From Eledone cirrhosa (lineage: Eukaryota): a stretch of 64,000 nt of DNA. The DNA is taken from contig OZ024741.1 in NCBI GenBank assembly GCA_964016885.1, positions 22,878,001-22,942,000 on the forward strand. Direction: 5' to 3'. Made by a program: the position numbers and the translations under genes. Of the stretch, positions 7,410 to 64,000 are shown one piece after another. The notes below the pieces were generated by a model. It ran no database searches. It saw nothing but the letters and a program-made list of their open reading frames with translations, and was not told where the DNA came from. Positions within the stretch are counted from its first letter, which is position 1, and each line of letters starts with the position of its first letter.

Positions 7410-7418
7410 CGTTCTCTC

Positions 7419-16520: not shown

Positions 16521-16566
16521 TCTGGCTGGGAATATCTAAGACAAGAAATTTTCTGATGATCATGAC

Positions 16567-27071: not shown

Positions 27072-27099
27072 TTAATATTGAAATATAGCATATAAGCAA

Positions 27100-28590: not shown

Positions 28591-28617
28591 AGAGAATAAT
28601 TTAAATGGTCATTTTAC

Positions 28618-28770: not shown

Positions 28771-28949
28771 CTGTGTGGAAGGAATCGGTAAGAAAATAAA
28801 TAGAGATGAGAAAAGGAGGAGGAGGAACCAACTGTCAGATTGGACCAGGGAAACAATGTTTCCATTGGTGATACTATTTGTCAGTCACAATTCCTGACAG
28901 AAGGAACAACAAGATATAAAAGTATTTTGCTTGAGAACAATCCTTTCTT

Positions 28950-31900: not shown

Positions 31901-32439
31901 TGATATGATCTGTCCTAGAATGGAAGCCATGACCTTATGATAAGTCCTAGAATTGAAGTCATGATCTTATGATCAGTCCTAGAATTGAAGTCATGATCTT
32001 ATGATCAGTTCTAGAATTGAAGTCATGATCTTATGATCAGTCCTAGAATTGAAGTCATGATCTTATGATCAGTCCTAGAATAGAAGCCATGATCCTATGA
32101 TCAATCCTAGAATTGAAGTCATGATCTTATGATTAGTCCTAGAATAGAAGCCATAATCCTATGATCAGTCCTGGAATAGAAGTCATGATCTTATGATCAG
32201 TCCTAGAATGGAAGCCATGATCTTATGATCAGTCCTAGAATGGAAGCCATGATCTGATGATCAGACTTAGAATTGAAGCTATGATCTTATGATCAGTCTT
32301 AGAATTGAAGCCATGATCTTATGATCAGTCCTAGAATGGAAGCCATGACCTTATGATCAGTCCTAGAATGGAAGCCATTGTCTTATGATCAGTCCTAGAC
32401 TTGAAGCCATTGTCTTATGATCAGTCCTAGAATTGAAGC
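28950..32439. repeat. 32-bp intronic minisatellite, ~109 copies
   Basis: Consensus CAGTCCT(G/A)GAATAGAAGCCATGATCTTATGAT, moderately diverged; one inverted unit at 30485-30513. Confidence 0.98.
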
Positions 32440-33071: not shown

Positions 33072-33221
33072 ATGTGGGTCAGTTGTTAATGGTGTATAAC
33101 CAGTCATTAAGAAATGAAGTCGTGGTGTAGGAATAAGAGAAGCTATCAAACCAACAAGATCATTGTTCATATATCCAGGGTACCTCAGTGTTGCTGTACT
33201 TGTTGACATCACTATTGACAC
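33072..33221 (-). CDS. TUBG1: Gamma-tubulin exon (150 bp)
   Basis: cag|[50 protein letters not shown]|gtaaat. Confidence 0.97.
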
Positions 33222-35786: not shown

Positions 35787-35873
35787 CAATGAATTGATTT
35801 GACCAAATGTTGGATTCTGGATGCGAAGACGATCAGTTGCAATCCGATGAAGAGCTGTGTTATCTAATACCAC
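35787..35873 (-). CDS. TUBG1: Gamma-tubulin exon (87 bp), the most 5' exon in this window
   Basis: cag|[29 protein letters not shown]|gtgagt. Confidence 0.97.
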
Positions 35874-36242
35874 CTGTAAACATAAGAATAAATGAAATGA
35901 CATTAACTCTTTTGATACAAAACCACCTAAAACACTCTTGCTGTTCTCATACAAAACTGTTTTATTGTATTATAGCTTTAATAAAGTTAGCTTTTTTTAA
36001 ACCTTTTAATACCAAACAGCCTACATCCACTCCTGCTTCTATAATACAAAACTGTTTATTTTAAAGTCTTATATTTATCTAAACACATTTCATCCTAATT
36101 TCATGTAAGAACCTTTGTTATGTTCCAAACACCAACCTAATGTGAAAATCATAGGCAATGTCTTTTATTAGAAATATAGTAATGAAAAGGTTAATACTGG
36201 AAACATCATCATCCTCATCACCATTTAACGTCCATTTTTCCA

Positions 36243-39200
36243 CACAGTACACTGTTTAGAAGTAGTACTGGTACCACAATAAAAGCAAGCAGTACACACT
36301 GTAAAATGGTAGTACTGGTACCACAATAAAAGCTCACCGTACACACTGTAAAATGGTAGTACTGGTACCACAATAAAAGCTCACAGTACAGTGTAAAATG
36401 GTAGTACTGGTACCACAATAAAAGCAAGCAGTAGAGTGTAAAATGGTAGTACTGGTACCACAATAAAAGCTCACAGTACAGTGTAAAATGGTAGTACTGG
36501 TACCACAATAAAAGCAAGCAGTACAGTGTAAAATGGTAGTACTGGTACCACAATAAAAGCAAGCAGTAGAGTGTAAAATGGTAGTACTGGTACCACAATA
36601 AAAGCTCACAGTACAGTGTAAAATGGTAGTACTGGTACCACAATAAAAGCAAGCAGTACAGTGTAAAATGGTAGTACTGGTACCACAATAAAAGCTCACA
36701 GTACAGTGTAAAATGGTAGTACTGGTACCACAATAAAAGCTCACAGTACAGTGTAAAATGGTAGTACTGGTACCACAATAAAAGCAAGCAGTAGAGTGTA
36801 AAATGGTAGTACTGGTACCACAATAAAAGCAAGCAGTAGAGTGTAAAATGGTAGTACTGGTACCACAATAAAAGCTCACAGTACAGTGTAAAATGGTAGT
36901 ACTGGTACCACAATAAAAGCAAGCAGTAGAGTGTAAAATGGTAGTACTGGTACCACAATAAAAGCAAGCAGTACAGTGTAAAATGGTAGTACTGGTACCA
37001 CAATAAAAGTTCACAGTACAGTGTAAAATGGTAGTACTGGTACCACAATAAAAGCAAGCAGTACAGTGTAAAATGGTAGTACTGGTACCACAATAAAAGC
37101 ACGCAGTACACACTGTAAAATGGTAGTACTGGTACCACGATAAAAGCTCACAGTACACACTGTAAAATGGTAGTACTGGTACCACAATAAAAGCACGCAG
37201 TACACACTGTAAAATGGTAGTACTGGTACCACGATAAAAGCTCACAGTACACACTGTAAAATGGTAGTACTGGTACCACAATAAAAGCAAGCAGTACAGT
37301 GTAAAATGGTAGTACTGGTACCACAATAAAAGCAAGCAGTACAGTGAAAAATGGTAGTACTGGTACCACAATAAAAGCACGCAGTACACACTGTAAAATG
37401 GTAGTACTGGTACCACAATAAAAGCACGCAGTACACACTGTAAAATGGTAGTACTGGTACCACGATAAAAGCTCACAGTACACACTGTAAAATGGTAGTA
37501 CTGGTACCACAATAAAAGCACGCAGTACACACTGTAAAATGGTAGTACTGGTACCACGATAAAAGCTCACAGTACAGTGTAAAATGGTAGTACTGGGTCA
37601 ACAATAAAAGCTCAGTACAGTGTAAAATGGTAGTACTGGTACCATAATAAAAGCTCACAGTACAGTGTAAAATGATAGTACCGGCATCACAATAAAAGCT
37701 CACAGTACAGTGGAAAATAGTAGTACTGGTACCACAATAAAAGCAAGCAGTACAGTGTAAAATGGTAGTACTGGTACCACAATAAAAGCACGCAGTACAG
37801 TGTAAAATGGTAGTACTGGTACCACAATAAAAGCTCACAATACAGTGTAAAATGGTAGTACTGGTACCACAATAAAAGCACGCAGTACACACTGTAAAAT
37901 GGTAGTACTGGTACCACAATAAAAGCTCACAGTACAGTGTAAAATGGTAGTACTGGTACCACAATAAAAGCTCACAGTACAGTGCAAAATGGTAGTACTG
38001 GTACCACAATAAAAGCTCACAGTACAGTGTAAAATGGTAGTACTGGTACCACAATAAACGCAAGCAGTACAGTATAAAATGGTAGTACTGGTACCACAAT
38101 AAAAGCAAGCAGTACAGTATAAAATGGTAGTACTGGAACCATAATAAAAGCACGCAGTACAGTGTAAAATGGTAGTACTGGTACCACAATAAAAGCTCAC
38201 AGTACAGTGTAAAATGGTAGTACTGGTACCACAATAAAAGCTCACAGTACAGTGTAAAATGGTAATACTGATACCACAAGAAAAGCAAGCAGTACAGTAT
38301 AAAATGGTAGTACTGGTACCACAATAAAAGCTCACAGTACAGTGTAAAATGGTAGTACTGGTACCACAATAAAAGCAAGCAGTACAGTGCAAAATGGTAG
38401 TACTGGTATCACAATAAAAGCAAGCAGTACAGTGCAAAATGGTAGTACTGGTACCACAATAAAAGCTCACAGTACAGTGTAAAATGGTAGTACTGGTACC
38501 ACAATAAAAGCTCACAGTACACACTGTAAAATGGTAGTACTGGTACCACAATAAAAGCAAGCAGTACAGCATAAAATGGTAGTACTGGTACCACAATAAA
38601 AGCATGCAGTACACACTGCAAAATGGTAGTACTGGTACCACAATAAAAGCACGCGGTACACACTGTAAAATGGTAGTACTTGTACCACAATAAAAGCTCA
38701 CAGTACACACTGTAAAGTGGTAGTACTGGTTCCACAGTAAAAGCAAGCAGTACAGTGTAAAATGGTAGTACTGGTACCATAATAAAAGCTCACTGTACAG
38801 TGTAAAATGGTAGTACTGGTACCACAATAAAAGCAAGCAGTACAGCGTAAAATGGTAGTACTGGTACCACAATAAAAGCAAGCAGTACAGCGTAAAATGG
38901 TAGTACTGGTACCACAATAAAAGCAAGCAGTACAGTGTAAAATGGTAGTACTGGTACCACAATAAAAAGCTCACAGTACACTGTAAAATGGTAGTACTGG
39001 TACCACAATAGAAGCTCACAGTACAGTGTAAAATGGTAGTACTGGTACCACAATAAAAGCAAGCATTACAGTGTAAAATGGTAGTACTGGTAGCACAATA
39101 AAAGCTCACAGTACAGTGTAAAATGGTAGTACTGGTACCACAATAAAAGCAAGCAGTACAGTGTAAAATGGTAGTACTGATACCACAATAAAAGCAAGCA

Positions 39201-42200
39201 GTACAGTGTAAAATGGTAGTACTGGTACCACAATAAAAGCTCACAGTACAGCGTAAAAGGGTAGTACTGGTACCACAATAAAAGCTCAGTACACTGTAAA
39301 ATGGTAGTACTGGTACCACAATAAAAGCTCACAGTACAGTGTAAAATGGTAGTACTGGTACCACAATAAAAGCTCACAGTACAGTGTAAAATGGAAGTAC
39401 TGGTACCACAATAAAAGCAAGCAGTTCAGTGTAAAATGGAAGTACTGGTACCACAATAAAAGCAAGCAGTACAGTGTAAAATGGTAGTACTGGTACCACA
39501 ATAAAAGAACGCAGTACAGTGTAAAATGGTAGTACTGGTACCACAATAAAAGCACGCAGTACACACTGTAAAATGGTAGTACTGGTACCACAATAAAAGC
39601 ACGCAGTACACACTGTAAAATGGTAGTACTGGTACCACAATAAACGCAAGCAGTACAGTGTAAAATGGTAGTACTGGTACCACAATAAAAGCTCACAGTA
39701 CAGTGTAAAATGGTAGTACTGGTACCACAATAAAAGCAAGCAGTACAGTGTAAAATGGTAGTACTGGTACCACAATAAAAGCTCGCAGTACAGTGTAAAA
39801 TTGTAGTACTGGTACCACAATAAAAGCACGCAGTACAGTGTAAAATGGTAGTACTGGTACCACAATAAAAGCAAGCAGGACAGTGTAAAATGGTAGTACT
39901 GGTACCACAATAAAAGCAAGCAGTACAGTGTAAAATGGTAGTACTGGTACCACAATAAAAGCAAGCAGTACAGTGTAAAATGGTAGTACTGGTACCACAA
40001 TAAAAGCTCACAGTACAGTGTAAAAGGGTAGTACTGGTACCACAATAAAAGCTCACAGTACAGTGTAAAATGGTAGTACTGGTACCACAATAACAGCAAG
40101 CAGTACAGTGTAAAATGGTAGTACTGGAAACACAATAAAAGCTCACAGTACAGTGTAAAATGGTAGTACTGGTACCACAATAAAAGCTCACAGTACAGTG
40201 TAAAATGGTAGTACTGGTACCACAATAAAAGCCCACAGTACAGTGTAAAATGGTAGTACTGGTACCACAATAAAAGCTCACAGTACAGTGTAAAATGGTA
40301 GTACTGGTACCACAATAAAAGCAAGCAGTACAGTGTAAAATGGTAGTACTGGTACCACAATAAAAGCTCACAGTACAGTGTAAAATGGTAGTACTGGTAC
40401 CACAAAAAAAGCAAGCAGTACAGTGTAAAATGGTAGTACTGGTACCACAATAAAAGCACGCAGTACAGTGTAAAATGGTAGTACTGGTACCACAATAAAA
40501 GCACGCAGTACAGAGTAAAATAGTAGTACTGGTACCACAATAAAAGCAAGCAGTACAGTGTAAAATGGTAGTACTGGTACCACAATAAAAGCTCACAGTA
40601 CAGTGTAATATGGTAGTACTGGTACCACAATAAAAGCAAGCAGTACAGTGTAAAATGGTAGTACTGGTCCCACAATAAAAGCTCACAGTACAGTGTAAAA
40701 TGGTAGTACTGGTACCACAATAAAAGCAAGCAGTACAGTGTAAAATGGTAGTACTGGTACCATAAAAGCACGCAGTACACACTGTAAAATGGTAGTACTG
40801 GTACCATAATAAAAGCAAGCAGTACAGTATAAAATGGTAGTACTGGTACCACAATAAAAGCAAGCAGTACAGTGTAAAATGGTAGTACAGGTACCACAAT
40901 AAAAGCAAGCAGTACAGTGTAAAATGGTAGTACTGGTACCACAATAAAAGCAAGCAGTAAAGTGTAAAAGGGTAGTACTGGTACCACAATAAAAGCTCAC
41001 AGTACACTGTAAAATGGTAGTACTGGTACCACAATAAAAGCACGCAGTACAGTGTAAAATGGTAGTACTGGTACCACAATAAAAGCAAGCAGTACAGTGT
41101 AAAATGGTAGTACTGGTACCACAATAAAAGCACGCAGTCCAGTGTAAAATGGTAGTACTGGTACCACAATAAAAGCTCACAGTACAGTGTAAAATGGTAG
41201 TACTGGTACCACAATGAAAGCTCACAGTACAGTGTAAAATGGTAGTACTGGTACCACAATAAAAGCAAACAGTACAGTGTAAAATGGTAGTACTGGTACC
41301 ACAATAAAAGCAAGCAGTACAGTGTAAAATGGTAGTACTGGTCCCACAATAAAAGCTCACAATACAGTGTAAAATGGTAGTACTGGTACCACAATAAAAG
41401 CAAGCAGTACAGTGTAAAATGGTAGTACTGGTACCACAATAAAAGCTCACAGTACACTGTAAAATGGTAGTACTGGTACCACAATAGAAGCTCACAGTAC
41501 AGTGTAAAATGGTAGTACTGGTACCACAATAAAAGCAAGCATTACAGTGTAAAATGGTAGTACTGGTAGCACAATAAAAGCTCACAGTACAGTGTAAAAT
41601 GGAAGTACTGGTACCACAATAAAAGCAAGCATTACAGTGTAAAATGTAGTACTGGTACCACAATAAAAGCAAGCAGTACAGTGTAAAATGATAGTACTGA
41701 TACCACAATAAAAGCAAGCAGTACAGTGTAAAATGGTAGTACTGGTACCACAATAAAAGCTCACAGTACAGCGTAAAAGGGTAGTACTGGTACCACAATA
41801 AAAGCTCAGTACACTGTAAAATGGTAGTACTGGTACCACAATAAAAGCTCACAGTACAGTGTAAAATGGTAGTACTGGTACCACAATAAAAGCAAGCAGT
41901 ACAGTGTAAAATGGTATTACTGGTACCACAATAAAAGCAAGCAGTACAGTGTAAAATGGTAGTACTGGTACCACAATAAAAGCTCACAGTACAGTGCAAA
42001 ATGGTAGTACTGGTATCACAATAAAAGCAAGCAGTACAGTGTAAAATGGTAGTACTGGTACCACAATAAAAGCAAGCAGTACAGTGTAAAATGGTAGTAC
42101 TGGTACCACAATAAAAGCAAGCAGTACAGTGTAAAATGGTAGTACTGGTACCACAAAAAAAGCAAGCAGTACAGTGTAAAATGGTAGTACTGGTACCACA

Positions 42201-45200
42201 ATAAAAGCAAGCAGTACAGTGTAAAATGGTAGTACTGGTCCCACAATAAAAGCTCACAGTACAGCGTAAAATGGTAGTACTGGTACCACAATATAAGCAA
42301 GCAGTACAGTGTAAAATGGTAGTACTGGTACCACAATAAAAGAACGCAGTACAGTGTAAAATGGTAGTACTGGTACCACAATAAAAGCAAGCAGTACAGT
42401 GTAAAATGGTAGTACTGGTACCACAATGAAAGCAAGCAGGACAGTGTAAAATGGTAGTACTGGTACCACAATAAAAGCAAGCAGTACAGTGTAAAATGGT
42501 AGTACTGGTACCACAATAAAAGCTCACAGTACAGTGTAAAATGGTAGTACTGGTACCACAATAAAAGCAAGCAGTAGAGTGTAAAATGGTAGTACTGGTA
42601 ACACAATAAAAGCAAGCAGTACAGTGTAAAATGGTAGTACTGGTAACACAATAACAGCAAGCAGTACAGTGTAAAATGGTAGTACTGGCACCACAATAAA
42701 AGCTCACAGTACAGTGTAAAATGGTAGTACTGGTGCCACAATAAAAGCTCACAGTACAGTGTAAAATGGTAGTACTGGTACCACAATAAAAGCAAGCAGT
42801 ACAGTGTAAAATGGTAGTACTGGTACCACAATAAAAGCTCACAGTACAGTGTAAAATGGTAGTACTGGTACCACAATAAAAGCTCACAGTACAGTGTACA
42901 ATGGTAGCACTGGTACCACAATAAAAGCAAGCAGTACAGTGTAAAATGGTAGTACTGGAACCACAATAAAAGCAAGCAGTACAGCGTAAAATGGTAGTAC
43001 TGGTACCACAATAAAAGCACGCAGTACACACTGTAAAATGGTAGTACTGGTACCACAATAAAAGCACGCAGTACACACTGTAAAATGGTAGTACTGGTAC
43101 CACAATAAAAGCTCACAGTACAGTGCAAAATGGTAGTACTGGTACCACAATAAAAGCTCACAGTACAGTGTAAAATGGTAGTACTGGTACCACAATAAAC
43201 GCAAGCAGTACAGTGTAAAATGGTAGTACTGGTACCACAATAAAAGCTCACAGTACAGTGTAAAATGGTAGTACTGGTACCACAATAAAAGCAAGCAGTA
43301 CAGTGTAAAATGGTAGTACTGGTACCACAATAAAAGCTCGCAGTACAGTGTAAAATGGTAGTACTGGTACCACAATAAAAGCACGCAGTCCAGTGTAAAA
43401 TGGTAGTACTGGTACCACAATGAAAGCAAGCAGGACAGTGTAAAATGGTAGTACTGGTACCACAATAAAAGCAAGCAGTACAGTGTAAAATGGTAGTACT
43501 GGTACCACAATAAAAGCTCACAGTACAGTGTAAAAGGGTAGTACAGGTACCACAATAAAAGCTCACAGTACAGTGTAAAATGGTAGTACTGGTACCACAA
43601 TAACAGCAAGCAGTACAGTGTAAAATGGTAGTACTGGTACCACATTAAAAGCAAGCAGTACAGTGTAAAATGGTAGTACTGGTACCACAATAAAAGCAAG
43701 CAGTACAGTGTAAAATCGTAGTACTGGTACCACAATAAAAGCCCACAGTACAGTGTAAAATGGTAGTACTGGTACCTCAATAAAAGCACGCAGTACAGTG
43801 TAAAATGGTAGTACTGGTACCACAATAAAAGCTCACAGTACACACTGTAAAATGGTAGTACTGGTACCACAATAAAAGCAAGCAGTACAGTGTAAAATGG
43901 TAGTACTAGTACCACAATAAAAGCACGCAGTACAGTGTAAAATGGTAGTACTGGTACCACAATAAAAGCAAGCAGTACAGTGTAAAATACTAGTACTGGT
44001 ACCACAATAGAAAGCAAGCAGTACAGTGCAAAATGGTAGTACTGGTACCACAAAAGCACACAGTTCAGTGTAAAATGGTAGTACTGGTACCACAATAAAA
44101 GCAAGCAGTACGGTGTAAAATGGTAGTACTGGTACCACAATAAAAGCAAGCAGTACAGTGTAAAATGGTAGTACTGGTACCACAATGGAAGCAAGCAGTA
44201 CAGTGTAAAATGGTAGCACTGGTACCACAATAAAAGCACGCAGAACAGTGTAAAATAGTAGTACTGGTACCACAATAAAAGCACGCAGTACCGTGTAAAA
44301 TGGTAGTACTGGTACCACAATAAAAGCATGCAGTACTCACTGTAAAATGGTAGTACTGGTACCACAATAAAAGCTCACAGTACACACTGTAAAATGGTAG
44401 TACTGGTACCACAATGAAAGCTCACAGTACAGTGTAAAATGGTAGTACTGGTACCACAATAAAAGCTCACAGTACAGTGTAAAATGGTAGTACTGGTACC
44501 ACAATAAAAGCTCAAAGTACAGTGTAAAATGGTAGTACTGGTACCACAATAAAAGCAAGCAGTACAGTGTAAAATGGTAGTACTGGAACCACAATAAAAG
44601 CAAGCAGTACAGCGTAAAATGGTAGTACTGGTACCACAATAAAAGCACGCAGTACACACTGTAAAATGGTAGTACTGGTACCACAATAAAAGCACGCAGT
44701 ACACACTGTAAAATGGTAGTACTGGTACCACAATAAAAGCTCACAGTACAGTGTAAAATGGTAGTACTGGTACCACAATAAACGCAAGCAGTACAGTGTA
44801 AAATGGTAGTACTGGTGCCACAATAAAAGCTCACAGTACAGTGTAAAATGGTAGTGCTGGTACCACAATAAAAGCAAGCAGTACAGTGTAAAATGGTAGT
44901 ACTGGTACCACAATAAAAGCTCGCAGTACAGTGTAAAATGGTAGTACTGGTACCACAATAAAAGCACGCAGTCCAGTGTAAAATGGTAGTACTGGTACCA
45001 CAATAAAAGCAAGCAGGACAGTGTAAAATGGTAGTACTGGTACCACAATAAAAGCAAGCAGTACAGTGTAAAATGGTAGTACTGGTACCACAATAAAAGC
45101 TCACAGTACAGTGTAAAAGGGTAGTACAGGTACCACAATAAAAGCTCACAGTACAGTGTAAAATGGTAGTACTGGTACCACAATAACAGCAAGCAGTACA

Positions 45201-48200
45201 GTGTAAAATGGTAGTACTGGTACCACAATAAAAGCTCACAGTACAGTGTAAAATGGTAGTACTGGTACCACAATAAAAGCAAGCAGTACAGTGTAAAATC
45301 GTAGTACTGGTACCACAATAAAAGCCCACAGTACAGTGTAAAATGGTAGTACTGGTACCTCAATAAAAGCACGCAGTACAGTGTAAAATGGTAGTACTGG
45401 TACCACAATAAAAGCAAGCAGTACAGTGTAAAATAGTAGTACTGATACCACAATAAAAGCAAGCAGTAAAGTGTAAAAGGGTAGTACTGGTACCACAATA
45501 AAAGCTCACAGTACACTGTAAAATGGTAGTACTGGTACCACAATAAAAGCACGCAGTACAGTGTAAAATGGTAGTACTGGTACCACAATAAAAGCAAGCA
45601 GTACAGTGTAAAATGGTAGTACTGGTACCACAATAAAAGCAAGCAGTACAGTGTAAAATGGTAGTACTGGTCCCACAATAAAAGCTCACAGTACAGTGTA
45701 AAATGATAGTACTGGTACCATAATAAAAGCAAGCAGTACAGTGTAAAATGGTAGTACTGGTACCACAATAAAAGCACGCAGTACAGTGTAAAATGGTAGT
45801 ACTGGTACCACAATAACAGCAAGCAGTACAGTGTAAAATGGTAGTACTGGTACCATAATAAAAGCAAGCAGTACAGTGTAAAATGGTAGTACTGGTACCA
45901 CAATAAAAGCAAGCAGTACAGTGTAAAATGGTAGTACTGGTACCACAATAAAAGCAAGCAGTACAGTGCAAAATGGTAGTACTGGTACCACAATAAAAGC
46001 ACGCAGTCCAGTGTAAAATGGTAGTACTGGTACCACAATAAAAGCTCACAGTACAGTGTAAAATGGTAGTACTGGTACCACAATGAAAGCTCACAGTACA
46101 GTGTAAAATGGTAGTACTGGTACCACAATAAAAGCAAACAGTACAGTGTAAAATGGTAGTACTGGTACCACAATAAAAGCAAGCAGTACAGTGTAAAATG
46201 GTAGTACTGGTCCCACAATAAAAGCTCACAATACAGTGTAAAATGGTAGTACTGGTACCACAATAAAAGCAAGCAGTACAGTGTAAAATGGTAGTACTGG
46301 TACCACAATAAAAGCTCACAGTACACTGTAAAATGGTAGTACTGGTACCACAATAGAAGCTCACAGTACAGTGTAAAATGGTAGTACTGGTACCACAATA
46401 AAAGCAAGCATTACAGTGTAAAATGGTAGTACTGGTAGCACAATAAAAGCTCACAGTACAGTGTAAAATGGAAGTACTGGTACCACAATAAAAGCAAGCA
46501 TTACAGTGTAAAATGTAGTACTGGTACCACAATAAAAGCAAGCAGTACAGTGTAAAATGATAGTACTGATACCACAATAAAAGCAAGCAGTACAGTGTAA
46601 AATGGAAGTACTGGTACCACAATAAAAGCAAGCATTACAGTGTAAAATGTAGTACTGGTACCACAATAAAAGCAAGCAGTACAGTGTAAAATGGTAGTAC
46701 TGGTACCACAATAAACGCAAGCAGTACAGTGTAAAATGGTAGTACTGGTACCACAATAAAAGCTCACAGTACAGCGTAAAAGGGTAGTACTGGTACCACA
46801 ATAAAAGCTCAGTACACTGTAAAATGGTAGTACTGGTACCACAATAAAAGCTCACAGTACAGTGTAAAATGGTAGTACTGGTACCACAATAAAATCTCAC
46901 AGTACAGTGTAAAATGGAAGTACTGGTACCATAATAAAAGCAAGCAGTAGTGTAAAATGGTAGTACTGGTACCACAATAAAAGCACGCAGTACACACTGT
47001 AAAATGGTAGTACTGGTACCACAATAAAAGCAGGCAGTACACACTGTAAAATGGTAGTACTGGTACCACAATAAAAGCTCAGAGTACAGTGTAAAATGGT
47101 AGTACTGGAACCACAATAAAAGCAAGCAGTACAGTGTAAAATGGTATTACTGGTCCACAATAAAAGCAAGCAGTACAGTGTAAAATGGTAGTACTGGTAC
47201 CACAATAAAAGCTCACAGTACAGTGCAAAATGGTAGTACTGGTATCACAATAAAAGCAAGCAGTACATTGTAAAATGGTAGTACTGGTACCACAATAAAA
47301 GCAAGCAGTACAGTGTAAAATGGTAGTACTGGTACCAAAATAAAAGCTCACAGTACAGTGTAAAATGGTAGTACTGGTACCACAAAAAAAGCAAGCAGTA
47401 CAATGTAAAATGGTAGTACTGGTACCACAAAAAAAGCAAGCAGTACAGTGTAAAATGGTAGTACTGGTACCACAATAAAAGCACGCAGTACAGTGTAAAA
47501 TGGTAGTACTGGTCCCACAATAAAATCTCACAGTACAGCGTAAAATGGTAGTACGGGTACCACAATATAAGCAAGCAGTACAGTGTAAAATGGTAGTACT
47601 GGTACCACAATAAAAGCAAGCAGTACAGTGTAAAATGGTAGTACTGATACCACAATAAAAGCACGCAGTCCAGTGTAAAATGGTAGTACTGGTACTACAA
47701 TAAAAGCAAGCAGTAGAGTGTAAAATGGTAGTACTGGTACCAAAATAAAAGCTCACAGTACAGTGTAAAATGGTAGTACTGGTACCACAATAAAAGCAAG
47801 CAGTAGAGTGTAAAATGGTAGTACTGGTAACACAATAAAAGCAAGCAGTACAGTGTAAAATGGTAGTACTGGTACCACAATAAAAGCAAGCAGTACAGTG
47901 TAAAATGGTAGTACTGGTACCACAATAACAGCAAGCAGTACAGTGTAAAATGGTAGTACTGGTACCACAATAAAAGCTCACAGTACAGTGTAAAATGATA
48001 GTACTGGTACCACAATAAAAGCAAGCAGTACAGTGTAAAATGGTAGTACTGGTACCACAATAAAAACAAGCAGTACAGTGTAAAATGGTAGTACTGGTCC
48101 CACAATAAAAGCTCACAATACAGTGTAAAATGGTAGTACTGGTACCACAATAAAAGCAAGCAGTACAGCGTAAAATGGTATTACTAGTACCACAATAAAA

Positions 48201-51200: not shown

Positions 51201-54200
51201 ATGGTAGTACTGGTACCACAATAAAAGCTCAGAGTACAGTGTAAAATGGTAGTACTGGTACCACAATAAAAGCAAGCAGTACAGTGTAAAATGGTATTAC
51301 TGGTACCACAATAAAAGCAAGCAGTACAGTGTAAAATGGTAGTACTGGTACCACAATAAAAGCTCACAGTACAGTGCAAAATGGTAGTACTGGTATCACA
51401 ATAAAAGCAAGCAGTACAGTGTAAAATGGTAGTACTGGTACCACAATAAAAGCAAGCAGTACAGTGTAAAATGGTAGTACTGGTACCAAAATAAAAGCTC
51501 ACAGTACAGTGTAAAATGGTAGTACTGGTACCACAAAAAAAGCAAGCAGTACAGTGTAAAATGGTAGTACTGGTACCACAAAAAAAGCAAGCAGTACAGT
51601 GTAAAATGGTAGTACTGGTACCACAATAAAAGCACGCAGTACAGTGTAAAATGGTAGTACTGGTCCCACAATAAAATCTCACAGTACAGCGTAAAATGGT
51701 AGTACGGGTACCACAATATAAGCAAGCAGTACAGTTTAAAATGGTAGTACTGGTACCACAATAAAAGCAAGCAGTACAGTGTAAAATGGTAGTACTGGTA
51801 CCACAATAAAAGCACGCAGTCCAGTGTAAAATGGTAGTACTGGTACCACAATAAAAGCAAGCAGTAGAGTGTAAAATGGTAGTACTGGTACCAAAATAAA
51901 AGCTCACAGTACAGTGTAAAATGGTAGTACTGGTACCACAATAAAAGCAAGCAGTAGAGTGTAAAATGGTAGTACTGGTAACACAATAAAAGCAAGCAGT
52001 ACAGTGTAAAATGGTAGTACTGGTACCACAATAAAAGCAAGCAGTACAGTGTAAAATGGTAGTACTGGTACCACAATAACAGCAAGCAGTACAGTGTAAA
52101 ATGGTAGTACTGGCACCACAATAAAAGCTCACAGTACAGTGTAAAATGGTAGTACTGGTACCACAATAAAAGCTCACAGTACAGTGTAAAATGGTAGTAC
52201 TGGTACCACAATAAAAGCTCACAGTACAGTGTAAAATGATAGTACTGGTACCACAATAAAAGCAAGCAGTACAGTGCAAAATGGTAGTAATGGTACCACA
52301 AAAGCACGCAGTGCAGTGTAAAATGGTAGTACTGGTACCACAATAAAAGCAAGCAGTACGGTGTAAAATGGTGGTACTGGTACCACAATAAAAGCAAGCA
52401 GTACAGTGTAAAATGGTAGTACTGGTATCACAATGGAAGCAAGCAGTACAGTGTAAAATGGTAGCACTGGTACCACAATAAAAGCACGCAGAACAGTGTA
52501 AAATGGTAGTACTGGTACCACAATAAAAGCACGCAGTACCGTGTAAAATGGTAGTACTGGTACCACAATAAAAGCATGCAGTACTCACTGTAAAATGTTA
52601 GTACTGGTACCACAATAAAAGCTCCCAGTACACACTGTAAAATGGTAGTACTGGTACCACAATGAAAGCTCACAGTACAGTGTAAAATGGTAGTACTGGT
52701 ACCACAATAAAAGCAAGCAGTACAGTGTAAAATGGTAGTACTGGTACCACAATAAAAGCAAGCAGTACAGTGTAAAATGGTAGTACTGGTACCATAATAA
52801 AAGCTCACAGTACAGTGTAAAATGGTAGTACTGGTACCACAATAAAAGCACGCGTTACACACTGTAAAATGGTAGTACTGGTACCACAATAAAAGCTCAC
52901 AGTACACACTGTAAAATGGTAGTACTGGTACCACAATAAAAGCAAGCAGTACAGTGTAAAATGGTAGTACTGGTACCATAATAAAAGCTCACGGTACAGT
53001 GTAAAATGGTAGTACTGGTACCACAATAAAAGCAAGCAGTACAGTGTAAAATGGTAGTATTGGTACCACAATAAAAGCACGCAGTACAGTGTAAAATGGT
53101 AGTACTGGTACCACAATAAAAGCAAGCAGTACAGTGTAAAATGGTAGTACTGGTACCACAATAGAAAGCAAGCAGTACAATGTAAAATGGTAGTACTGGT
53201 ACCACAAACGCACGCAGTACAGTGTAAAATGGTAGTACTGGTACCACAATAAAAGCAAGCAGTACAGTGTAAAATGGTAGTACTGGTACCACAATAAAAG
53301 CAAGCAGTACAGTGTAAAATGGTAGTACTGGTACCACAATAAAAGCAAGCAGTACAGTGTAAAATGGTATTACTGGTACCACAATAAAAGCAAGCAGTAC
53401 AGTGTAAAATGGTAGTACTGGTACCACAATAAAAGCTCACAGTACAGTGCAAAATGGTAGTACTGGTATCACAATAAAAGCAAGCAGTACAGTGTAAAAT
53501 GGTAGTACTGGTACCACAATAAAAGCAAGCAGTACAGTGTAAAATGGTAGTACTGGTACCACAATAAAAGCAAGCAGTACAGTGTAAAATGGTAGTACTG
53601 GTACCACAATAAAAGCACGCAGTCCAGTGTAAAATGGTAGTACTGGTACCACAATAAAAGCAAGCAGTAGAGTGTAAAATGGTAGTACTGGTACCAAAAT
53701 AAAAGCTCACAGTACAGTGTAAAATGGTAGTACTGGTACCACAATAAAAGCAAGCAGTAGAGTGTAAAATGGTAGTACTGGTACCACAATAAAAGCAAGC
53801 AGTACAGTGTAAAATGGTAGTACTCGTACCACAATAAAAGCAAGCAGTACAGTGTAAAATGGTAGTACTGGTACAATAAAAGCAAGCAGTACAGTGTAAA
53901 ATGGTAGTACTGGTACCACAATAACAGCAAGCAGTAGAGTGTAAAATGGTAGTACTGGCACCACAATAAAAGCTCACAGTACAGTGTAAAATGGTAGTAC
54001 TGGTACCACAATAAAAGCTCACAGTACAGTGTAAAATGGTAGTACTGGTACCACAATAAAAGCTCACAGTACAGTGTACAATGGTAGTACTGGTACCACA
54101 ATAAAAGCAAGCAGTACAGTGTAAAATGGTAGTACTGGAACCACAATAAAAGCAAGCAGTACAGCGTAAAATGGTAGTACTGGTACCACAATAAAAGCAC

Positions 54201-57200
54201 GCAGTACACACTGTAAAATGGTAGTACTGGTACCACAATAAAAGCACGCAGTACACACTGTAAAATGGTAGTACTGGTACCACAATAAAAGCTCACAGTA
54301 CAGTGCAAAATGGTAGTACTGGTACCACAATAAAAGCTCACAGTACAGTGTAAAATGGTAGTACTGGTACCACAATAAAAGCAAGCAGTACAGTGTAAAA
54401 TGGTAGTACTGGTACCACAATAAAAGCTCGCAGTACAGTGTAAAATGGTAGTACTGGTACCACAATAAAAGCACGCAGTCCAGTGTAAAATGCTAGTACT
54501 GGTACCACAATAAAAGCAAGCAGGACAGTGTAAAATGGTAGTACTGGTACCACAATAAAAGCAAGCAGTACAGTGTAAAATGGTAGTACTGGTACCACAA
54601 TAAAAGCTCACAGTACAGTGTAAAAGGGTAGTACAGGTACCATAATAAAAGCTCACAGTACAGTGTAAAATGGTAGTACTGGTACCACAATAACAGCAAG
54701 CAGTACAGTGTAAAATGGTAGTACTGGTACCACAATAAAAGCAAGCAGTACAGTGTAAAATGGTAGTACTGGTACCACAATAAAAGCAAGCAGTACAGTG
54801 CAAAATCGTAGTACTGGTACCACAATAAAAGCCCACAGTACAGTGTAAAATGGTAGTACTGGTACCTCAATAAAAGCACGCAGTACAGTGTAAAATGGTA
54901 GTACTGGTACCACAATAAAAGCTCACAGTACAGACTGTAAAATGGTAGTACTGGTACCACAATAAAAGCAAGCAGTACAGTGTAAAATGGTAGTACTAGT
55001 ACCACAATAAAAGCACGCAGTACAGTGTAAAATGGTAGTACTGGTACCACAATAAAAGCAAGCAGTACAGTGTAAAATACTAGTACTGGTACCACAATAG
55101 AAAGCAAGCAGTACAGTGCAAAATGGTAGTACTGGTACCACAAAAGCACGCAGTGCAGTGTAAAATGGTAGTACTGGTACCACAATAAAAGCAAGCAGTA
55201 CGGTGTAAAATGGTAGTACTGGTACCACAATAAAAGCAAGCAGTACAGTGTAAAATGGTAGTACTGGTACCACAATGGAAGCAAGCAGTACAGTGTAAAA
55301 TGGTAGCACTGGTACCACAATAAAAGCACGCAGAACAGTGTAAAATGGTAGTACTGGTACCACAATAAAAGCACGCAGTACCGTGTAAAATGGTAGTACT
55401 GGTACCACAATAAAAGCATGCAGTACTCACTGTAAAATGGTAGTACTGGTACCACAATAAAAGCTCACAGTACACACTGTAAAATGGTAGTACTGGTACC
55501 ACAATGAAAGCTCACAGTACAGTGTAAAGTGGTAGTACTGGTACCACAATAAAAGCTCACAGTACAGTGTAAAATGGTAGTACTGGTACCACAATAAAAG
55601 CTCAAAGTACAGTGTAAAATGGTAGTACTGGTACCACAATAAAAGCAAGCAGTACAGTGTAAAATGGTAGTACTGGAACCACAATAAAAGCAAGCAGTAC
55701 AGCGTAAAATGGTAGTACTGGTACCACAATAAAAGCACGCAGTACACACTGTAAAATGGTAGTACTGGTACCACAATAAAAGCACGCGGTACACACTGTA
55801 AAATGGTAGTACTGGTACCACAATAAAAGCAAGCAGTACAGTGTAAAATGGTAGTACTGGTACCACAATAAAAGCAAGCAGTACAGCGTAAAATGGTAGT
55901 ACTGGTACCACAATAAAAGCACGCAGTACACACTGTAAAATGGTAGTACTGGTACCACAATAAAAGCACGCAGTACACACTGTAAAATGGTAGTACTGGT
56001 ACCACAATAAAAGCTCACAGTACAGTGTAAAATGGTAGTACTGGTACCACAATAAACGCAAGCAGTACAGTGTAAAATGGTAGTACTGGTGCCACAATAA
56101 AAGCTCACAGTACAGTGTAAAATGGTAGTACTGGTACCACAATAAAAGCAAGCAGTACAGTGTAAAATGGTAGTACTGGTACCACAATAAAAGCTCGCAG
56201 TACAGTGTAAAATGGTAGTACTGGTACCACAATAAAAGCACGCAGTCCAGTGTAAAATGGTAGTACTGGTACCACAATAAAAGCAAGCAGGACAGTGTAA
56301 AATGGTAGTACTGGTACCACAATAAAAGCTCACAGTACAGTGTAAAATGGTAGTACTGGTACCACAATAAAAGCAAGCAGTACAGTGTAAAAGGGTAGTA
56401 CAGGAACCACAATAAAAGCTCACAGTACAGTGTAAAATGGTAGTACTGGTACCACAATAACAGCAAGCAGTACAGTGTAAAATGGTAGTACTGGTAACAC
56501 AATAAAAGCTCACAGTACAGTGTAAAATGGTAGTACTGGTACCACAATAAAAGCAAGCAGTACAGTGTAAAATCGTAGTACTGGTACCACAATAAAAGCC
56601 CACAGTACAGTGTAAAATGGTAGTACTGGAACCTCAATAAAAGCACGCAGTACAGTGTAAAATGGTAGTACTGGTACCACAATAAAAGCAAGCAGTACAG
56701 TGTAAAATAGTAGTACTGGTACCACAATAAAAGCAAGCAGTACAGTGTAAAATGGTAGTACTGGTACCATAATAAAAGCTCACAGTACAGTGTAAAATGG
56801 TAGTACTGGTACCACAATAAAAGCTCACAGTACACACTGTAAAATGGTAGTACTGGTACCACAATAAAAGCAAGCAGTACAGTGTAAAATGGTAGTACTG
56901 GTACCATAATAAAAGCTCACGGTACAGTGTAAAATGGTAGTACTGGTACCACAATAAAAGCAAGCAGTACAGTGTAAAATGGTAGTACTGGTACCACAAT
57001 AAAAGCACGCAGTACAGTGTAAAATGGTAGTACTGGTACCACAATAAAAGCAAGCAGTACAGTGTAAAATGGTAGTACTGGTACCACAATAGAAAGCAAG
57101 CAGTACAATGTAAAATGGTAGTACTGGTACCACAAACGCACGCAGTAGTGTAAAATGGTAGTACTGGTACCACAATACAAGCAAGCAGTACAGTGTAAAA

Positions 57201-60200
57201 TGGTAGTACTGGTACCACAATAAAAGCAAGCAGTACAGTGTAAAATGGTAGTACTGGTACCACAATAAAAGCAAGCAGTACAGCGTAAAATGGTAGTACT
57301 GGTACCACAATAAAAGCACGCAGTACACACTGTAAAATGGTAGTACTGGTACCACAATAAAAGCACGCGGTACACACTGTAAAATGGTAGTACTGGTACC
57401 ACAATAAAAGCAAGCAGTACAGTGTAAAATGGTATTACTGGTACCACAATAAAAGCAAGCAGTACAGTGTAAAATGGTAGTACTGGTACCACAATAAAAG
57501 CTCACAGTACAGTGCAAAATGGTAGTACTGGTATCACAATAAAAGCAAGCAGTACAGTGTAAAATGGTAGTACTGGTACCACAATAAAAGCAAGCAGTAC
57601 AGTGTAAAATGGTAGTACTGGTACCACAATAAAAGCAAGCAGTACAGTGTAAAATGGTAGTACTGGTACCACAATAAAAGCACGCAGTCCAGTGTAAAAT
57701 GGTAGTACTGGTACCACAATAAAAGCAAGCAGTAGAGTGTAAAATGGTAGTACTGGTACCAAAATAAAAGCTCACAGTACAGTGTAAAATGGTAGTACTG
57801 GTACCACAATAAAAGCAAGCAGTAGAGTGTAAAATGGTAGTACTGGTACCACAATAAAAGCAAGCAGTACAGTGTAAAATGGTAGTACTCGTACCACAAT
57901 AAAAGCAAGCAGTACAGTGTAAAATGGTAGTACTGGTACAATAAAAGCAAGCAGTACAGTGTAAAATGGTAGTACTGGTACCACAATAACAGCAAGCAGT
58001 AGAGTGTAAAATGGTAGTACTGGCACCACAATAAAAGCTCACAGTACAGTGTAAAATGGTAGTACTGGTACCACAATAAAAGCTCACAGTACAGTGTAAA
58101 ATGGTAGTACTGGTACCACAATAAAAGCTCACAGTACAGTGTACAATGGTAGTACTGGTACCACAATAAAAGCAAGCAGTACAGTGTAAAATGGTAGTAC
58201 TGGAACCACAATAAAAGCAAGCAGTACAGCGTAAAATGGTAGTACTGGTACCACAATAAAAGCACGCAGTACACACTGTAAAATGGTAGTACTGGTACCA
58301 CAATAAAAGCACGCAGTACACACTGTAAAATGGTAGTACTGGTACCACAATAAAAGCTCACAGTACAGTGCAAAATGGTAGTACTGGTACCACAATAAAA
58401 GCTCACAGTACAGTGTAAAATGGTAGTACTGGTACCACAATAAAAGCAAGCAGTACAGTGTAAAATGGTAGTACTGGTACCACAATAAAAGCTCGCAGTA
58501 CAGTGTAAAATGGTAGTACTGGTACCACAATAAAAGCACGCAGTCCAGTGTAAAATGGTAGTACTGGTACCACAATAAAAGCAAGCAGGACAGTGTAAAA
58601 TGGTAGTACTGGTACCACAATAAAAGCAAGCAGTACAGTGTAAAATGGTAGTACTGGTACCACAATAAAAGCTCACAGTACAGTGTAAAAGGGTAGTACA
58701 GGTACCATAATAAAAGCTCACAGTACAGTGTAAAATGGTAGTACTGGTACCACAATAACAGCAAGCAGTACAGTGTAAAATGGTAGTACTGGTACCACAA
58801 TAAAAGCAAGCAGTACAGTGTAAAATGGTAGTACTGGTACCACAATAAAAGCACGCAGTCCAGTGTAAAATGGTAGTACTGGTACCACAATAAAAGCAAG
58901 CAGTAGAGTGTAAAATGGTAGTACTGGTACCAAAATAAAAGCTCACAGTACAGTGTAAAATGGTAGTACTGGTACCACAATAAAAGCAAGCAGTAGAGTG
59001 TAAAATGGTAGTACTGGTACCACAATAAAAGCAAGCAGTACAGTGTAAAATGGTAGTACTCGTACCACAATAAAAGCAAGCAGTACAGTGTAAAATGGTA
59101 GTACTGGTACAATAAAAGCAAGCAGTACAGTGTAAAATGGTAGTACTGGTACCACAATAACAGCAAGCAGTAGAGTGTAAAATGGTAGTACTGGCACCAC
59201 AATAAAAGCTCACAGTACAGTGTAAAATGGTAGTACTGGTACCACAATAAAAGCTCACAGTACAGTGTAAAATGGTAGTACTGGTACCACAATAAAAGCT
59301 CACAGTACAGTGTACAATGGTAGTACTGGTACCACAATAAAAGCAAGCAGTACAGTGTAAAATGGTAGTACTGGAACCACAATAAAAGCAAGCAGTACAG
59401 CGTAAAATGGTAGTACTGGTACCACAATAAAAGCACGCAGTACACACTGTAAAATGGTAGTACTGGTACCACAATAAAAGCACGCAGTACACACTGTAAA
59501 ATGGTAGTACTGGTACCACAATAAAAGCTCACAGTACAGTGCAAAATGGTAGTACTGGTACCACAATAAAAGCTCACAGTACAGTGTAAAATGGTAGTAC
59601 TGGTACCACAATAAAAGCAAGCAGTACAGTGTAAAATGGTAGTACTGGTACCACAATAAAAGCTCGCAGTACAGTGTAAAATGGTAGTACTGGTACCACA
59701 ATAAAAGCACGCAGTCCAGTGTAAAATGCTAGTACTGGTACCACAATAAAAGCAAGCAGGACAGTGTAAAATGGTAGTACTGGTACCACAATAAAAGCAA
59801 GCAGTACAGTGTAAAATGGTAGTACTGGTACCACAATAAAAGCTCACAGTACAGTGTAAAAGGGTAGTACAGGTACCATAATAAAAGCTCACAGTACAGT
59901 GTAAAATGGTAGTACTGGTACCACAATAACAGCAAGCAGTACAGTGTAAAATGGTAGTACTGGTACCACAATAAAAGCAAGCAGTACAGTGTAAAATGGT
60001 AGTACTGGTACCACAATAAAAGCAAGCAGTACAGTGCAAAATCGTAGTACTGGTACCACAATAAAAGCCCACAGTACAGTGTAAAATGGTAGTACTGGTA
60101 CCTCAATAAAAGCACGCAGTACAGTGTAAAATGGTAGTACTGGTACCACAATAAAAGCTCACAGTACAGACTGTAAAATGGTAGTACTGGTACCACAATA

Positions 60201-63200
60201 AAAGCAAGCAGTACAGTGTAAAATGGTAGTACTAGTACCACAATAAAAGCACGCAGTACAGTGTAAAATGGTAGTACTGGTACCACAATAAAAGCAAGCA
60301 GTACAGTGTAAAATACTAGTACTGGTACCACAATAGAAAGCAAGCAGTACAGTGCAAAATGGTAGTACTGGTACCACAAAAGCACGCAGTGCAGTGTAAA
60401 ATGGTAGTACTGGTACCACAATAAAAGCAAGCAGTACGGTGTAAAATGGTAGTACTGGTACCACAATAAAAGCAAGCAGTACAGTGTAAAATGGTAGTAC
60501 TGGTACCACAATGGAAGCAAGCAGTACAGTGTAAAATGGTAGCACTGGTACCACAATAAAAGCACGCAGAACAGTGTAAAATGGTAGTACTGGTACCACA
60601 ATAAAAGCACGCAGTACCGTGTAAAATGGTAGTACTGGTACCACAATAAAAGCATGCAGTACTCACTGTAAAATGGTAGTACTGGTACCACAATAAAAGC
60701 TCACAGTACACACTGTAAAATGGTAGTACTGGTACCACAATGAAAGCTCACAGTACAGTGTAAAGTGGTAGTACTGGTACCACAATAAAAGCTCACAGTA
60801 CAGTGTAAAATGGTAGTACTGGTACCACAATAAAAGCTCAAAGTACAGTGTAAAATGGTAGTACTGGTACCACAATAAAAGCAAGCAGTACAGTGTAAAA
60901 TGGTAGTACTGGAACCACAATAAAAGCAAGCAGTACAGCGTAAAATGGTAGTACTGGTACCACAATAAAAGCACGCAGTACACACTGTAAAATGGTAGTA
61001 CTGGTACCACAATAAAAGCACGCGGTACACACTGTAAAATGGTAGTACTGGTACCACAATAAAAGCAAGCAGTACAGTGTAAAATGGTAGTACTGGTACC
61101 ACAATAAAAGCAAGCAGTACAGCGTAAAATGGTAGTACTGGTACCACAATAAAAGCACGCAGTACACACTGTAAAATGGTAGTACTGGTACCACAATAAA
61201 AGCACGCAGTACACACTGTAAAATGGTAGTACTGGTACCACAATAAAAGCTCACAGTACAGTGTAAAATGGTAGTACTGGTACCACAATAAACGCAAGCA
61301 GTACAGTGTAAAATGGTAGTACTGGTGCCACAATAAAAGCTCACAGTACAGTGTAAAATGGTAGTACTGGTACCACAATAAAAGCAAGCAGTACAGTGTA
61401 AAATGGTAGTACTGGTACCACAATAAAAGCTCGCAGTACAGTGTAAAATGGTAGTACTGGTACCACAATAAAAGCACGCAGTCCAGTGTAAAATGGTAGT
61501 ACTGGTACCACAATAAAAGCAAGCAGGACAGTGTAAAATGGTAGTACTGGTACCACAATAAAAGCTCACAGTACAGTGTAAAATGGTAGTACTGGTACCA
61601 CAATAAAAGCAAGCAGTACAGTGTAAAAGGGTAGTACAGGAACCACAATAAAAGCTCACAGTACAGTGTAAAATGGTAGTACTGGTACCACAATAACAGC
61701 AAGCAGTACAGTGTAAAATGGTAGTACTGGTACCACAATAAAAGCTCACAGTACAGTGTAAAATGGTAGTACTGGTACCACAATAAAAGCAAGCAGTACA
61801 GTGTAAAATCGTAGTACTGGTACCACAATAAAAGCCCACAGTACAGTGTAAAATGGTAGTACTGGAACCTCAATAAAAGCACGCAGTACAGTGTAAAATG
61901 GTAGTACTGGTACCACAATAAAAGCAAGCAGTACAGTGTAAAATAGTAGTACTGGTACCACAATAAAAGCAAGCAGTACAGTGTAAAATGGTAGTACTGG
62001 TACCATAATAAAAGCTCACAGTACAGTGTAAAATGGTAGTACTGGTACCACAATAAAAGCTCACAGTACACACTGTAAAATGGTAGTACTGGTACCACAA
62101 TAAAAGCAAGCAGTACAGTGTAAAATGGTAGTACTGGTACCATAATAAAAGCTCACGGTACAGTGTAAAATGGTAGTACTGGTACCACAATAAAAGCAAG
62201 CAGTACAGTGTAAAATGGTAGTACTGGTACCACAATAAAAGCACGCAGTACAGTGTAAAATGGTAGTACTGGTACCACAATAAAAGCAAGCAGTACAGTG
62301 TAAAATGGTAGTACTGGTACCACAATAGAAAGCAAGCAGTACAATGTAAAATGGTAGTACTGGTACCACAAACGCACGCAGTACAGTGTAAAATGGTAGT
62401 ACTGGTACCACAATACAAGCAAGCAGTACAGTGTAAAATGGTAGTACTGGTACCACAATAAAAGCAAGCAGTACAGTGTAAAATGGTAGTACTGGTACCA
62501 CAATAAAAGCAAGCAGTACAGCGTAAAATGGTAGTACTGGTACCACAATAAAAGCACGCAGTACACACTGTAAAATGGTAGTACTGGTACCACAATAAAA
62601 GCACGCGGTACACACTGTAAAATGGTAGTACTGGTACCACAATAAAAGCAAGCAGTACAGTGTAAAATGGTATTACTGGTACCACAATAAAAGCAAGCAG
62701 TACAGTGTAAAATGGTAGTACTGGTACCACAATAAAAGCTCACAGTACAGTGCAAAATGGTAGTACTGGTATCACAATAAAAGCAAGCAGTACAGTGTAA
62801 AATGGTAGTACTGGTACCACAATAAAAGCAAGCAGTACAGTGTAAAATGGTAGTACTGGTACCACAATAAAAGCAAGCAGTACAGTGTAAAATGGTAGTA
62901 CTGGTACCACAATAAAAGCACGCAGTCCAGTGTAAAATGGTAGTACTGGTACCACAATAAAAGCAAGCAGTAGACTGTAAAATGGTAGTACTGGTACCAA
63001 AATAAAAGCTCACAGTACAGTGTAAAATGGTAGTACTGGTACCACAATAAAAGCAAGCAGTAGAGTGTAAAATGGTAGTACTGGTACCACAATAAAAGCA
63101 AGCAGTACAGTGTAAAATGGTAGTACTCGTACCACAATAAAAGCAAGCAGTACAGTGTAAAATGGTAGTACTGGTACAATAAAAGCAAGCAGTACAGTGT

Positions 63201-64000
63201 AAAATGGTAGTACTGGTACCACAATAACAGCAAGCAGTAGAGTGTAAAATGGTAGTACTGGCACCACAATAAAAGCTCACAGTACAGTGTAAAATGGTAG
63301 TACTGGTACCACAATAAAAGCTCACAGTACAGTGTAAAATGGTAGTACTGGTACCACAATAAAAGCTCACAGTACAGTGTACAATGGTAGTACTGGTACC
63401 ACAATAAAAGCAAGCAGTACAGTGTAAAATGGTAGTACTGGAACCACAATAAAAGCAAGCAGTACAGCGTAAAATGGTAGTACTGGTACCACAATAAAAG
63501 CACGCAGTACACACTGTAAAATGGTAGTACTGGTACCACAATAAAAGCACGCAGTACACACTGTAAAATGGTAGTACTGGTACCACAATAAAAGCTCACA
63601 GTACAGTGCAAAATGGTAGTACTGGTACCACAATAAAAGCTCACAGTACAGTGTAAAATGGTAGTACTGGTACCACAATAAAAGCAAGCAGTACAGTGTA
63701 AAATGGTAGTACTGGTACCACAATAAAAGCTCGCAGTACAGTGTAAAATGGTAGTACTGGTACCACAATAAAAGCACGCAGTCCAGTGTAAAATGGTAGT
63801 ACTGGTACCACAATAAAAGCAAGCAGGACAGTGTAAAATGGTAGTACTGGTACCACAATAAAAGCAAGCAGTACAGTGTAAAATGGTAGTACTGGTACCA
63901 CAATAAAAGCTCACAGTACAGTGTAAAAGGGTAGTACAGGTACCATAATAAAAGCTCACAGTACAGTGTAAAATGGTAGTACTGGTACCACAATAACAGC
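36243..64000. repeat. 45-bp satellite array, >600 monomers, runs off the window edge; intronic to gamma-tubulin
   Basis: Consensus GTGTAAAATGGTAGTACTGGTACCACAATAAAAGC(AAG/TCA/ACG)CAGTACA, with 47-bp (ACACACTGT) and rarer 42-46-bp variants. Confidence 0.99.

Follow-up and report, generated by a model that had tools for sequence, protein, structure and literature searches.

A gamma-tubulin gene with one giant intron

The window (the whole 64,000-nt stretch of Eledone cirrhosa DNA presented here, C2:22,878,001-22,942,000, numbered from its first letter) holds part of a minus-strand gene whose exons have as their best homologue 'tubulin gamma-1 chain [Octopus bimaculoides]'. The region analysed was 184 kb, i.e., the window and the next 120 kb, and in it tblastn placed 12 of 12 gamma-tubulin coding exons on the minus strand in collinear order. 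The refined model of this gene (TUBG1) is a complete ORF of 452 aa, 445 of them identical to the Octopus bimaculoides protein, and all 11 introns are GT-AG. Within the window lie exon 8 (35787..35873), exon 9 (33072..33221), exon 10 (28618..28770), exon 11 (26117..26278, a single match in the genome), and exon 12 with the stop codon (25262..25462), each on the minus strand and each supported by tblastn and the gene model. An earlier first-pass annotation of this DNA had read these five exons as coding for the last 250 aa of gamma-tubulin and had placed the N-terminal part past position 64000. Both claims were borne out, as a further seven exons (606 nt, 202 codons) were found there. The presence of all 12 exons in an intact ORF rules out a truncated paralogue or a missing N-terminus, and the gene carrying the satellite intron is intact in its sequence.

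Ten of the gamma-tubulin introns measure 654-4,301 nt, and the remaining one, intron 7, measures 38,473 nt, with 97.7% of it made up of satellite. The part of intron 7 inside the window spans 35874..64000 on the minus strand (GT-AG, phase 0). Among four sequencing runs from one study, their kind not on record, run X4 has a 2,015-nt contig that skips intron 8 exactly, joining exon 9 to exon 8, a skip absent from run X1. The X4 contig reaches 912 nt past exon 8, a length that would fit the 606 nt of upstream CDS together with a 5′ UTR of about 307 nt. We infer from that length that the satellite intron would be spliced out.

Extent and internal structure of the array

The 45/47-bp satellite array occupies 36243..64000 of the window on the plus strand, the sense of the RTE 3′ UTR discussed below. 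Its first degenerate unit begins at about 36243, and the array continues some 9.8 kb (about 9.85 kb) past the window end to stop at about 22,951,845 on C2, where a decayed RTE tail follows. Its position is intronic, at 22.9 of 416 Mb on C2. The array measures 37.6 kb in total and contains about 832 units (831-832 anchored). Within the window, TRF reported it as a single array at 36262-64000 with a period of 45, 614.6 copies, and 92% matches. The earlier figure of more than 27 kb of satellite in the intron is true of the window but understates the whole, which is the full 37.6-kb array in a 38.5-kb intron.

Of the 790 monomers into which the whole array was split, 687 have a length of 45 bp and 90 (11%) a length of 47 bp, so the 47-bp variant quoted in the first-pass annotation is real but a minority form. 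The 45-mer differs from the 47-mer by the loss of 2 bp within the CACACTGTAAA core. The array is a homogenised head-to-tail one, with a mean identity of 0.94 among its units, and its 45-mers diverge by 1.9% from their consensus when three diagnostic sites are set aside. Rare monomers reappear in identical form after 116, 90, and 206 units, and an exact-offset scan (megablast found none) revealed internal duplicates of 2,973 bp at an offset of 5,236 bp and of 1,897 bp at an offset of 4,022 bp. The monomer lags and exact duplicates together indicate recent amplification in kilobase blocks at the DNA level, part of which could be assembly error.

A stronger form of the latter explanation would hold that the array is real but that the assembly inflated its length or mis-joined it between exons 7 and 8. 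The longer exact duplication is what such an error might leave. Against this, there are no N gaps in or near the array from exon 8 to exon 1 (the sole gap in the 184 kb lies far off), both flanks fall within the expected intron, the exon order is collinear, and the array comprises 195 distinct monomers. We consider assembly error highly improbable, the least likely of the readings weighed here.

RTE-type elements and homology of the repeat unit

A young, 5′-truncated RTE-type LINE lies at 14943..16160 on the plus strand and retains an ORF end, a 3′ UTR with two to three units of about 48 bp (15906-15990), a unique tail, and GAT repeats. A second copy of this young family, at 27092..28600 on the minus strand, sits inside gamma-tubulin intron 10 and carries RT and PHD domains. 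Its UTR units span 27258-27364, which confirms the inverted copy of the UTR repeat that had been reported near 27258. RTE-type ORF pieces at 20716..23453 on the plus strand, with AP-endonuclease, RT, and PHD domains, served for family typing. Overall, the RTE-type copies in the window, which are young relatives of the array's parent, match PF03372/PF14529 and PF00078, plus PHD. The RTE label is that of the first-pass annotation, and membership of the parent LINE family in the RTE clade is putative. A homolog search with the LINE ORFs returned EN-RT-PHD proteins, none of them bearing a clade label. Copies of the family, in the window and in the genome, end in (GAT)n tails; such a tail is absent from the array's own parent remnant.

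The homology between the 47-mer and the repeat at 15906-15990, on which the first-pass annotation had built its case, withstood a shuffle test against the RTE 3′ UTR at 15854-16160. The 47-mer dimer scored 65, and the shuffled sequences had a mean of 16.3 and a maximum of 32 (0 of 2,000 reached the score). The commonest 45-mer scored 29, with a shuffle maximum of 27 (0 of 2,000), and the second-ranked 45-mer also scored 29, a value reached by 2 of 2,000 shuffles. The fourth-ranked array monomer scored 21, which 51 of 2,000 shuffles reached, and its match to the same 3′ UTR is not significant.

The parent element at the array edges

The far end of the array, proposed earlier as the place to look for the parent element, does hold a remnant of it: about 120 nt of decayed RTE tail, in register with the units and on the same strand. 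The tail profile used here was built from 16 non-array RTE-family 3′ ends in the 184-kb region. The last units together with the right flank match this profile with 26.9 bits. Taken alone, the right flank matches profile positions 100-230 with 12.9 bits, a weak match with a bias correction of 8.8 bits and no GAT end, and none of 1,000 dinucleotide shuffles reached its score (maximum 8.4). The terminal unit reads GGTGCC and GTGG, as do dispersed copies, and the array core reads GGTACC and ATGG. The right flank is also more decayed than the array itself. Because an in-register RTE tail makes up the unique DNA that follows the last unit, we place the parent element at the array site.

The left edge gives a different picture. 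A 3′ tail remnant with GAT repeats (36205..36242, minus strand; 13.6 bits, profile positions 209-258) adjoins the 5′ end of the array, and it belongs to another RTE-family copy. Its opposite strand rules it out as the parent's own. No same-strand ORF was found to the left of the array; a non-autonomous element that shares the tail could therefore have been the parent. No target-site duplication was identified at the array locus.

Outside the array, a degenerate pattern returned 10 matches at nine loci, which represent an older subfamily with GGTAGTGCTGGTGCC units. At seven of the nine, the profile match runs into the tail, and at one (L108) a diverged RTE-type ORF end lies directly upstream. 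Identity of the 47-mer reaches 83-88% with the units at C8, C12, and L110, versus 67% with the tested young RTE unit. This lower identity rules out the young RTE at 15906/27258 as direct parent; old-subfamily units are closer to the 47-mer, and the parent is therefore one of the young element's older relatives. We therefore retain the first-pass proposal that a LINE 3′-UTR seed became a satellite inside an essential gene, as supported by the in-register tail after the last unit and by the complete gene, and correct the parent to a member of an older subfamily, which may have been non-autonomous.

A genome-wide series of tailed arrays

Searches of the 3.0-Gb genome put the gamma-tubulin array in a wider setting. 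The junction between unit and tail has 120,962 exact matches (control 0), a lower bound on the number of tail junctions, and these copies lie on both strands. A three-unit tandem pattern has 81,698 matches (control 142); its sensitivity is uneven, with five matches in the gamma-tubulin array and 388 in the roughly 3,125 units of another array. A four-hexamer pattern intended to count total copies gave 98,476 matches. Its control was high (8,885) and its detection per array ran from 0 to 93%, so we put no figure on the total beyond a minimum of about 3.9 Mb (81,698 x 48).

Four units followed by the start of the tail have 1,181 matches (control 0). Among the matches listed, the 96 on C1 merge into 88 sites that are spread along the chromosome. 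The first 30 loci checked make up 29 distinct sites, 28 of which run into the tail (three of them truncated or interrupted) and one of which is array-internal; the pattern demands the first five tail bases, so tail presence at such sites is partly by construction. An ORF C-terminus lies just upstream in seven of the 29 sites, and three hold internal ORF pieces.

Array sizes near the locus are two to three units (at 15906), 4.8 units, and 11.3 units. Elsewhere, at C1:1.27 Mb, an RTE ORF end and the tail enclose 14 units, an array at C1:112 Mb has 211 units plus tail, and one at C1:5.49 Mb has at least 242 units plus tail. The array at C1:2,295,326-2,483,150, which lies 2.3 Mb from the C1 start, measures about 188 kb if continuous (32 kb of it was not fetched) and has an intact tail at its end. 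Tailed stages of expansion in this genome thus extend from two to more than 3,000 units, and the consensus differs from one examined array to the next. Arrays of this kind number several hundred or more, some of them larger than the one in the gamma-tubulin gene; hundreds of similar blocks appear to have grown from the RTE-tail repeat likewise.

Other tandem arrays near the locus

Further tandem arrays close to the gamma-tubulin array had been cited as signs of repeated conversion of retroposons into satellites. An 82-bp tandem of 2.4 copies (16559..16755, plus strand) is built from an RTE-family 3′ end, as is the array, and a 112-bp tandem duplication lies in another RTE-family 3′ end (19010..19245, minus strand). 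In intron 9, a 32-bp array of 110 copies (28949..32439, plus strand) has its start in register within another dispersed repeat, a SINE-like one, which its left flank and first unit match with 14.4 bits (shuffle maximum 4.3, 0 of 1,000). A single-sequence search with the 32-bp unit alone found no parent; the match came only from the SINE-like profile with the left flank included. For the nearby 50, 25, 19, 42, 28, 21, and 24-bp arrays, a search of 360 kb of background, which is a weak test, turned up no dispersed parent.

The claim of repeated conversion is supported for the 82-bp and 32-bp arrays; for the seven others the 360 kb yielded no parent, and conversion is genome-wide rather than a feature of this locus. 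The triplet and four-unit counts given above rule out a locus-specific 'conversion hot spot'.

Growth in place

A 26-mer diagnostic of the array matches the genome exactly at 499 places, every one of them in the gamma-tubulin array. The array variant is accordingly unique to the locus, with an identity of 0.94 within the array versus 0.59-0.73 to 15 other loci.

We regard it as likely that the 37.6-kb array expanded where it lies from an old 5′-truncated RTE-type copy in gamma-tubulin intron 7 and is a neutral passenger there, with neutrality taken as the default. Under this proposal, the old copy would have landed in intron 7, and a seed of at least two units of about 48 bp would have been amplified at the DNA level by slippage and then by unequal exchange of kilobase blocks. 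The dominant 45-mer would have arisen through the loss of 2 bp, and the array would have been homogenised locally. Polymerase would read through the array, and splicing would remove it. The antisense orientation would be the one that an essential gene tolerates, as the reverse would put some 730 AATAAA motifs into the pre-mRNA.

An alternative would be that a ready-made satellite block was inserted from another locus, by way of an extrachromosomal circle, a segmental copy, or a retrotransposed long RNA, and that the RTE-like right flank either travelled along with it or is coincidental. The genome does contain hundreds of related arrays that could act as donors, and the left edge, where the array adjoins an unrelated tail on the opposite strand, resembles a rearranged junction. 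However, the diagnostic 26-mer occurs at no other locus of the assembly, the right flank carries on the parent sequence in register and is more decayed than the array, the edge units are ancestral-like, and identity between arrays does not exceed 0.73. Insertion of a finished block is very improbable in our estimation, although we rank it above assembly error. Growth in place remains our preferred reading.

Orientation and a possible antisense role

On the pre-mRNA strand, the array runs antisense to the RTE UTR. AATAAA occurs in the array 730 times on the non-gene strand and 0 times on the gene strand, and from this count the observed orientation is likely the sole one that an essential gene tolerates. 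For intronic L1, an antisense bias is described as known and its cause as debated (PMC5717806).

The first-pass annotation had proposed that the intron could supply hundreds of RTE-antisense units. When the best 26-nt window of each unit was compared with the young 15906 UTR, 536 of 831 units had eight mismatches, and the best value, four mismatches, was found in 47. Against five younger RTE UTRs, the longest exact matches of array units were 11-20 nt, with rare units reaching 15-20 nt exact and two to four mismatches in 26 nt. Near-perfect complementarity to active elements was not found: the modal value is eight of 26, the best four for the 15906 UTR, and the best two for another subfamily. 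A modal eight mismatches in 26 nt to the young RTE would be poor for silencing. The proposed supply of antisense units is not upheld, given the eight mismatches per 26 nt in most units and the simpler account of orientation that the AATAAA count provides.

It could still be argued that the array shares the origin proposed above and was later co-opted, so that the intron yields antisense piRNA/siRNA or a chromatin-guiding RNA against RTE, or imposes a transcriptional delay that tunes gamma-tubulin output. The antisense orientation on the pre-mRNA and the rare units with long exact matches to younger RTE UTRs are consistent with such a role, as are the special expression programmes that satellite-filled giant introns are described to need in Drosophila (PMC6508621). 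The mismatch counts tell against it, as does the drift of the dominant 45-mer away from the RTE sequence. Moreover, some 121,000 tail copies on both strands already provide better-matched antisense, and the orientation can be explained by avoidance of poly(A) signals. We hold co-option to be very unlikely, even if it is the foremost of the alternatives.

Just as doubtful is its broader version, in which the 48-bp unit is a genome-wide satellite seed in octopods with more than 100,000 dispersed copies, about 1% of them independently expanded to between four and thousands of units, and in which the antisense intronic arrays in constitutively expressed genes have been co-opted as distributed antisense/piRNA sources against the dominant LINE.

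Comparison with known systems

Our literature searches turned up no description of this octopus 48-bp satellite family, though supplements and repeat libraries may hold one, and the main text of the O. vulgaris repeat annotation paper does not contain the word 'satellite'. The expressed octopus element RTE-2_OV is described as having a microsatellite 3′ UTR, and 'tandem' is absent from the main text that describes it (PMC9115989).

The route from a retroelement 3′ end to a satellite is already known from plants, reptiles, and whales. In Lathyrus sativus, the 3′-UTR tandem repeats of Ogre LTR-retrotransposons are dispersed and sometimes grow into long arrays, with all intermediates present (PMC7004042). 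The octopus series is alike in that short retroelement 3′-UTR repeats are dispersed by the element, some are expanded, and intermediate stages occur. In contrast, the octopus parent is an animal non-LTR, RTE-type LINE rather than a plant LTR-retrotransposon, and the octopus array sits in an intron of an essential gene, whereas long arrays derived from Ogre are described as lying mainly in primary constrictions (PMC7004042).

The SINE-derived satellites of squamates (sSat) resemble the octopus arrays in having a terminal unit that extends into the parent terminus at many loci and in their local homogenisation, with sSat arrays of up to about 1,000 units (PMC10702118). The octopus parent differs in being a LINE 3′ UTR that already has two to three units, and one octopus array reaches about 188 kb. 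As described in the same source, sSats are homogeneous between loci and subtelomeric, whereas octopus arrays differ from one another (0.6-0.88 identity) and are spread along chromosome 1 (PMC10702118).

Satellites from LINE 3′ ends include the cetacean common satellite (L1), Drosophila 18HT (HeT-A), and chicken HinfI (CR1) (PMC9659126), and such satellites also feature in another review (PMC12628747). As in these cases, the octopus monomer shares homology with the 3′ part of a non-LTR retrotransposon. Those are described as single satellite families, whereas many octopus arrays are still joined to their parent tails (PMC9659126). The main text of that review has 0 whole-word matches to RTE (PMC9659126).

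The scale of the genome-wide series, rather than the gamma-tubulin locus, carries the value of this work. The genome offers an unusually clean natural experiment on satellite birth, with one seed at more than 120,000 sites and arrays from two units to about 188 kb, and the series would allow a regression of array length against recombination, chromatin, gene context, and strand.

As for the locus itself, a 38-kb intron that is 98% satellite can sit in an essential housekeeping gene. In this it resembles the Drosophila Y fertility genes kl-3 and kl-5, described as having giant introns filled with satellite that likewise have to be transcribed and spliced (PMC6508621, PMC11207136). In contrast to those genes, the octopus intron measures 38 kb and not megabases, its host is a housekeeping gene, and its 45-bp unit is derived from a retrotransposon (PMC6508621, PMC11207136).

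Retroelements and minisatellites around the satellite array

On the reverse strand of the window, 5650-9770 resembles an LTR retrotransposon: its terminal repeats are near-identical, and it contains frames similar to gag, RT and integrase. A near-identical pair of ~400-bp direct repeats at 260-655 and 2020-2425, ~1.76 kb apart, looks like an LTR pair that would flank a small non-autonomous element.

RTE tails are the unique 3' ends that follow the ~48-bp units. On C1 (L123, ~3,225,950), a run of ~9 TTAGGG repeats breaks the tail directly after a 17-unit array; this run is a telomere-like insertion within the RTE element. In a second RTE-tail family, a 112-bp segment spanning one unit and the start of the tail is tandemly duplicated, with 2.1 copies in the window (19010-19245) and 4.1 copies in L011 (C2, ~23,032,300-23,032,800).

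Dense, unrelated minisatellites occupy L004-L012 (C2, 22.957-23.037 Mb) and window positions 24430-25112, with units of 25 bp (99 copies), 19 bp (128), 42 bp (45), 28 bp (165), 21 bp (108), 24 bp (23) and 50 bp (14). A search of 360 kb of background, which is a weak test, found no parent for any of them. These minisatellites suggest that tandem expansion is a general tendency of the Eledone cirrhosa genome.

Comparison with other arrays of the 48-bp family

An 86-unit old-subfamily array on C1 (420,582,184-420,586,183; L170-L171) mixes 48-bp and 43-bp units, which parallels the 47/45-bp mix of the window's array. Beside two further arrays of the family, exon-like open frames of putative genes lie on the opposite strand (L122:6350-6452 and L111:1680-1782), an apparent match to the antisense arrangement of the window's array within the gamma-tubulin gene. 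A 48-bp array at C1:2,295,326-2,483,150 (L113-L120, L153-L162 and L165), ~188 kb long if continuous across the 32 kb outside the stretches analysed, ends in an intact RTE tail, and, as in the window's array, an opposite-strand tail remnant adjoins its 5' end.
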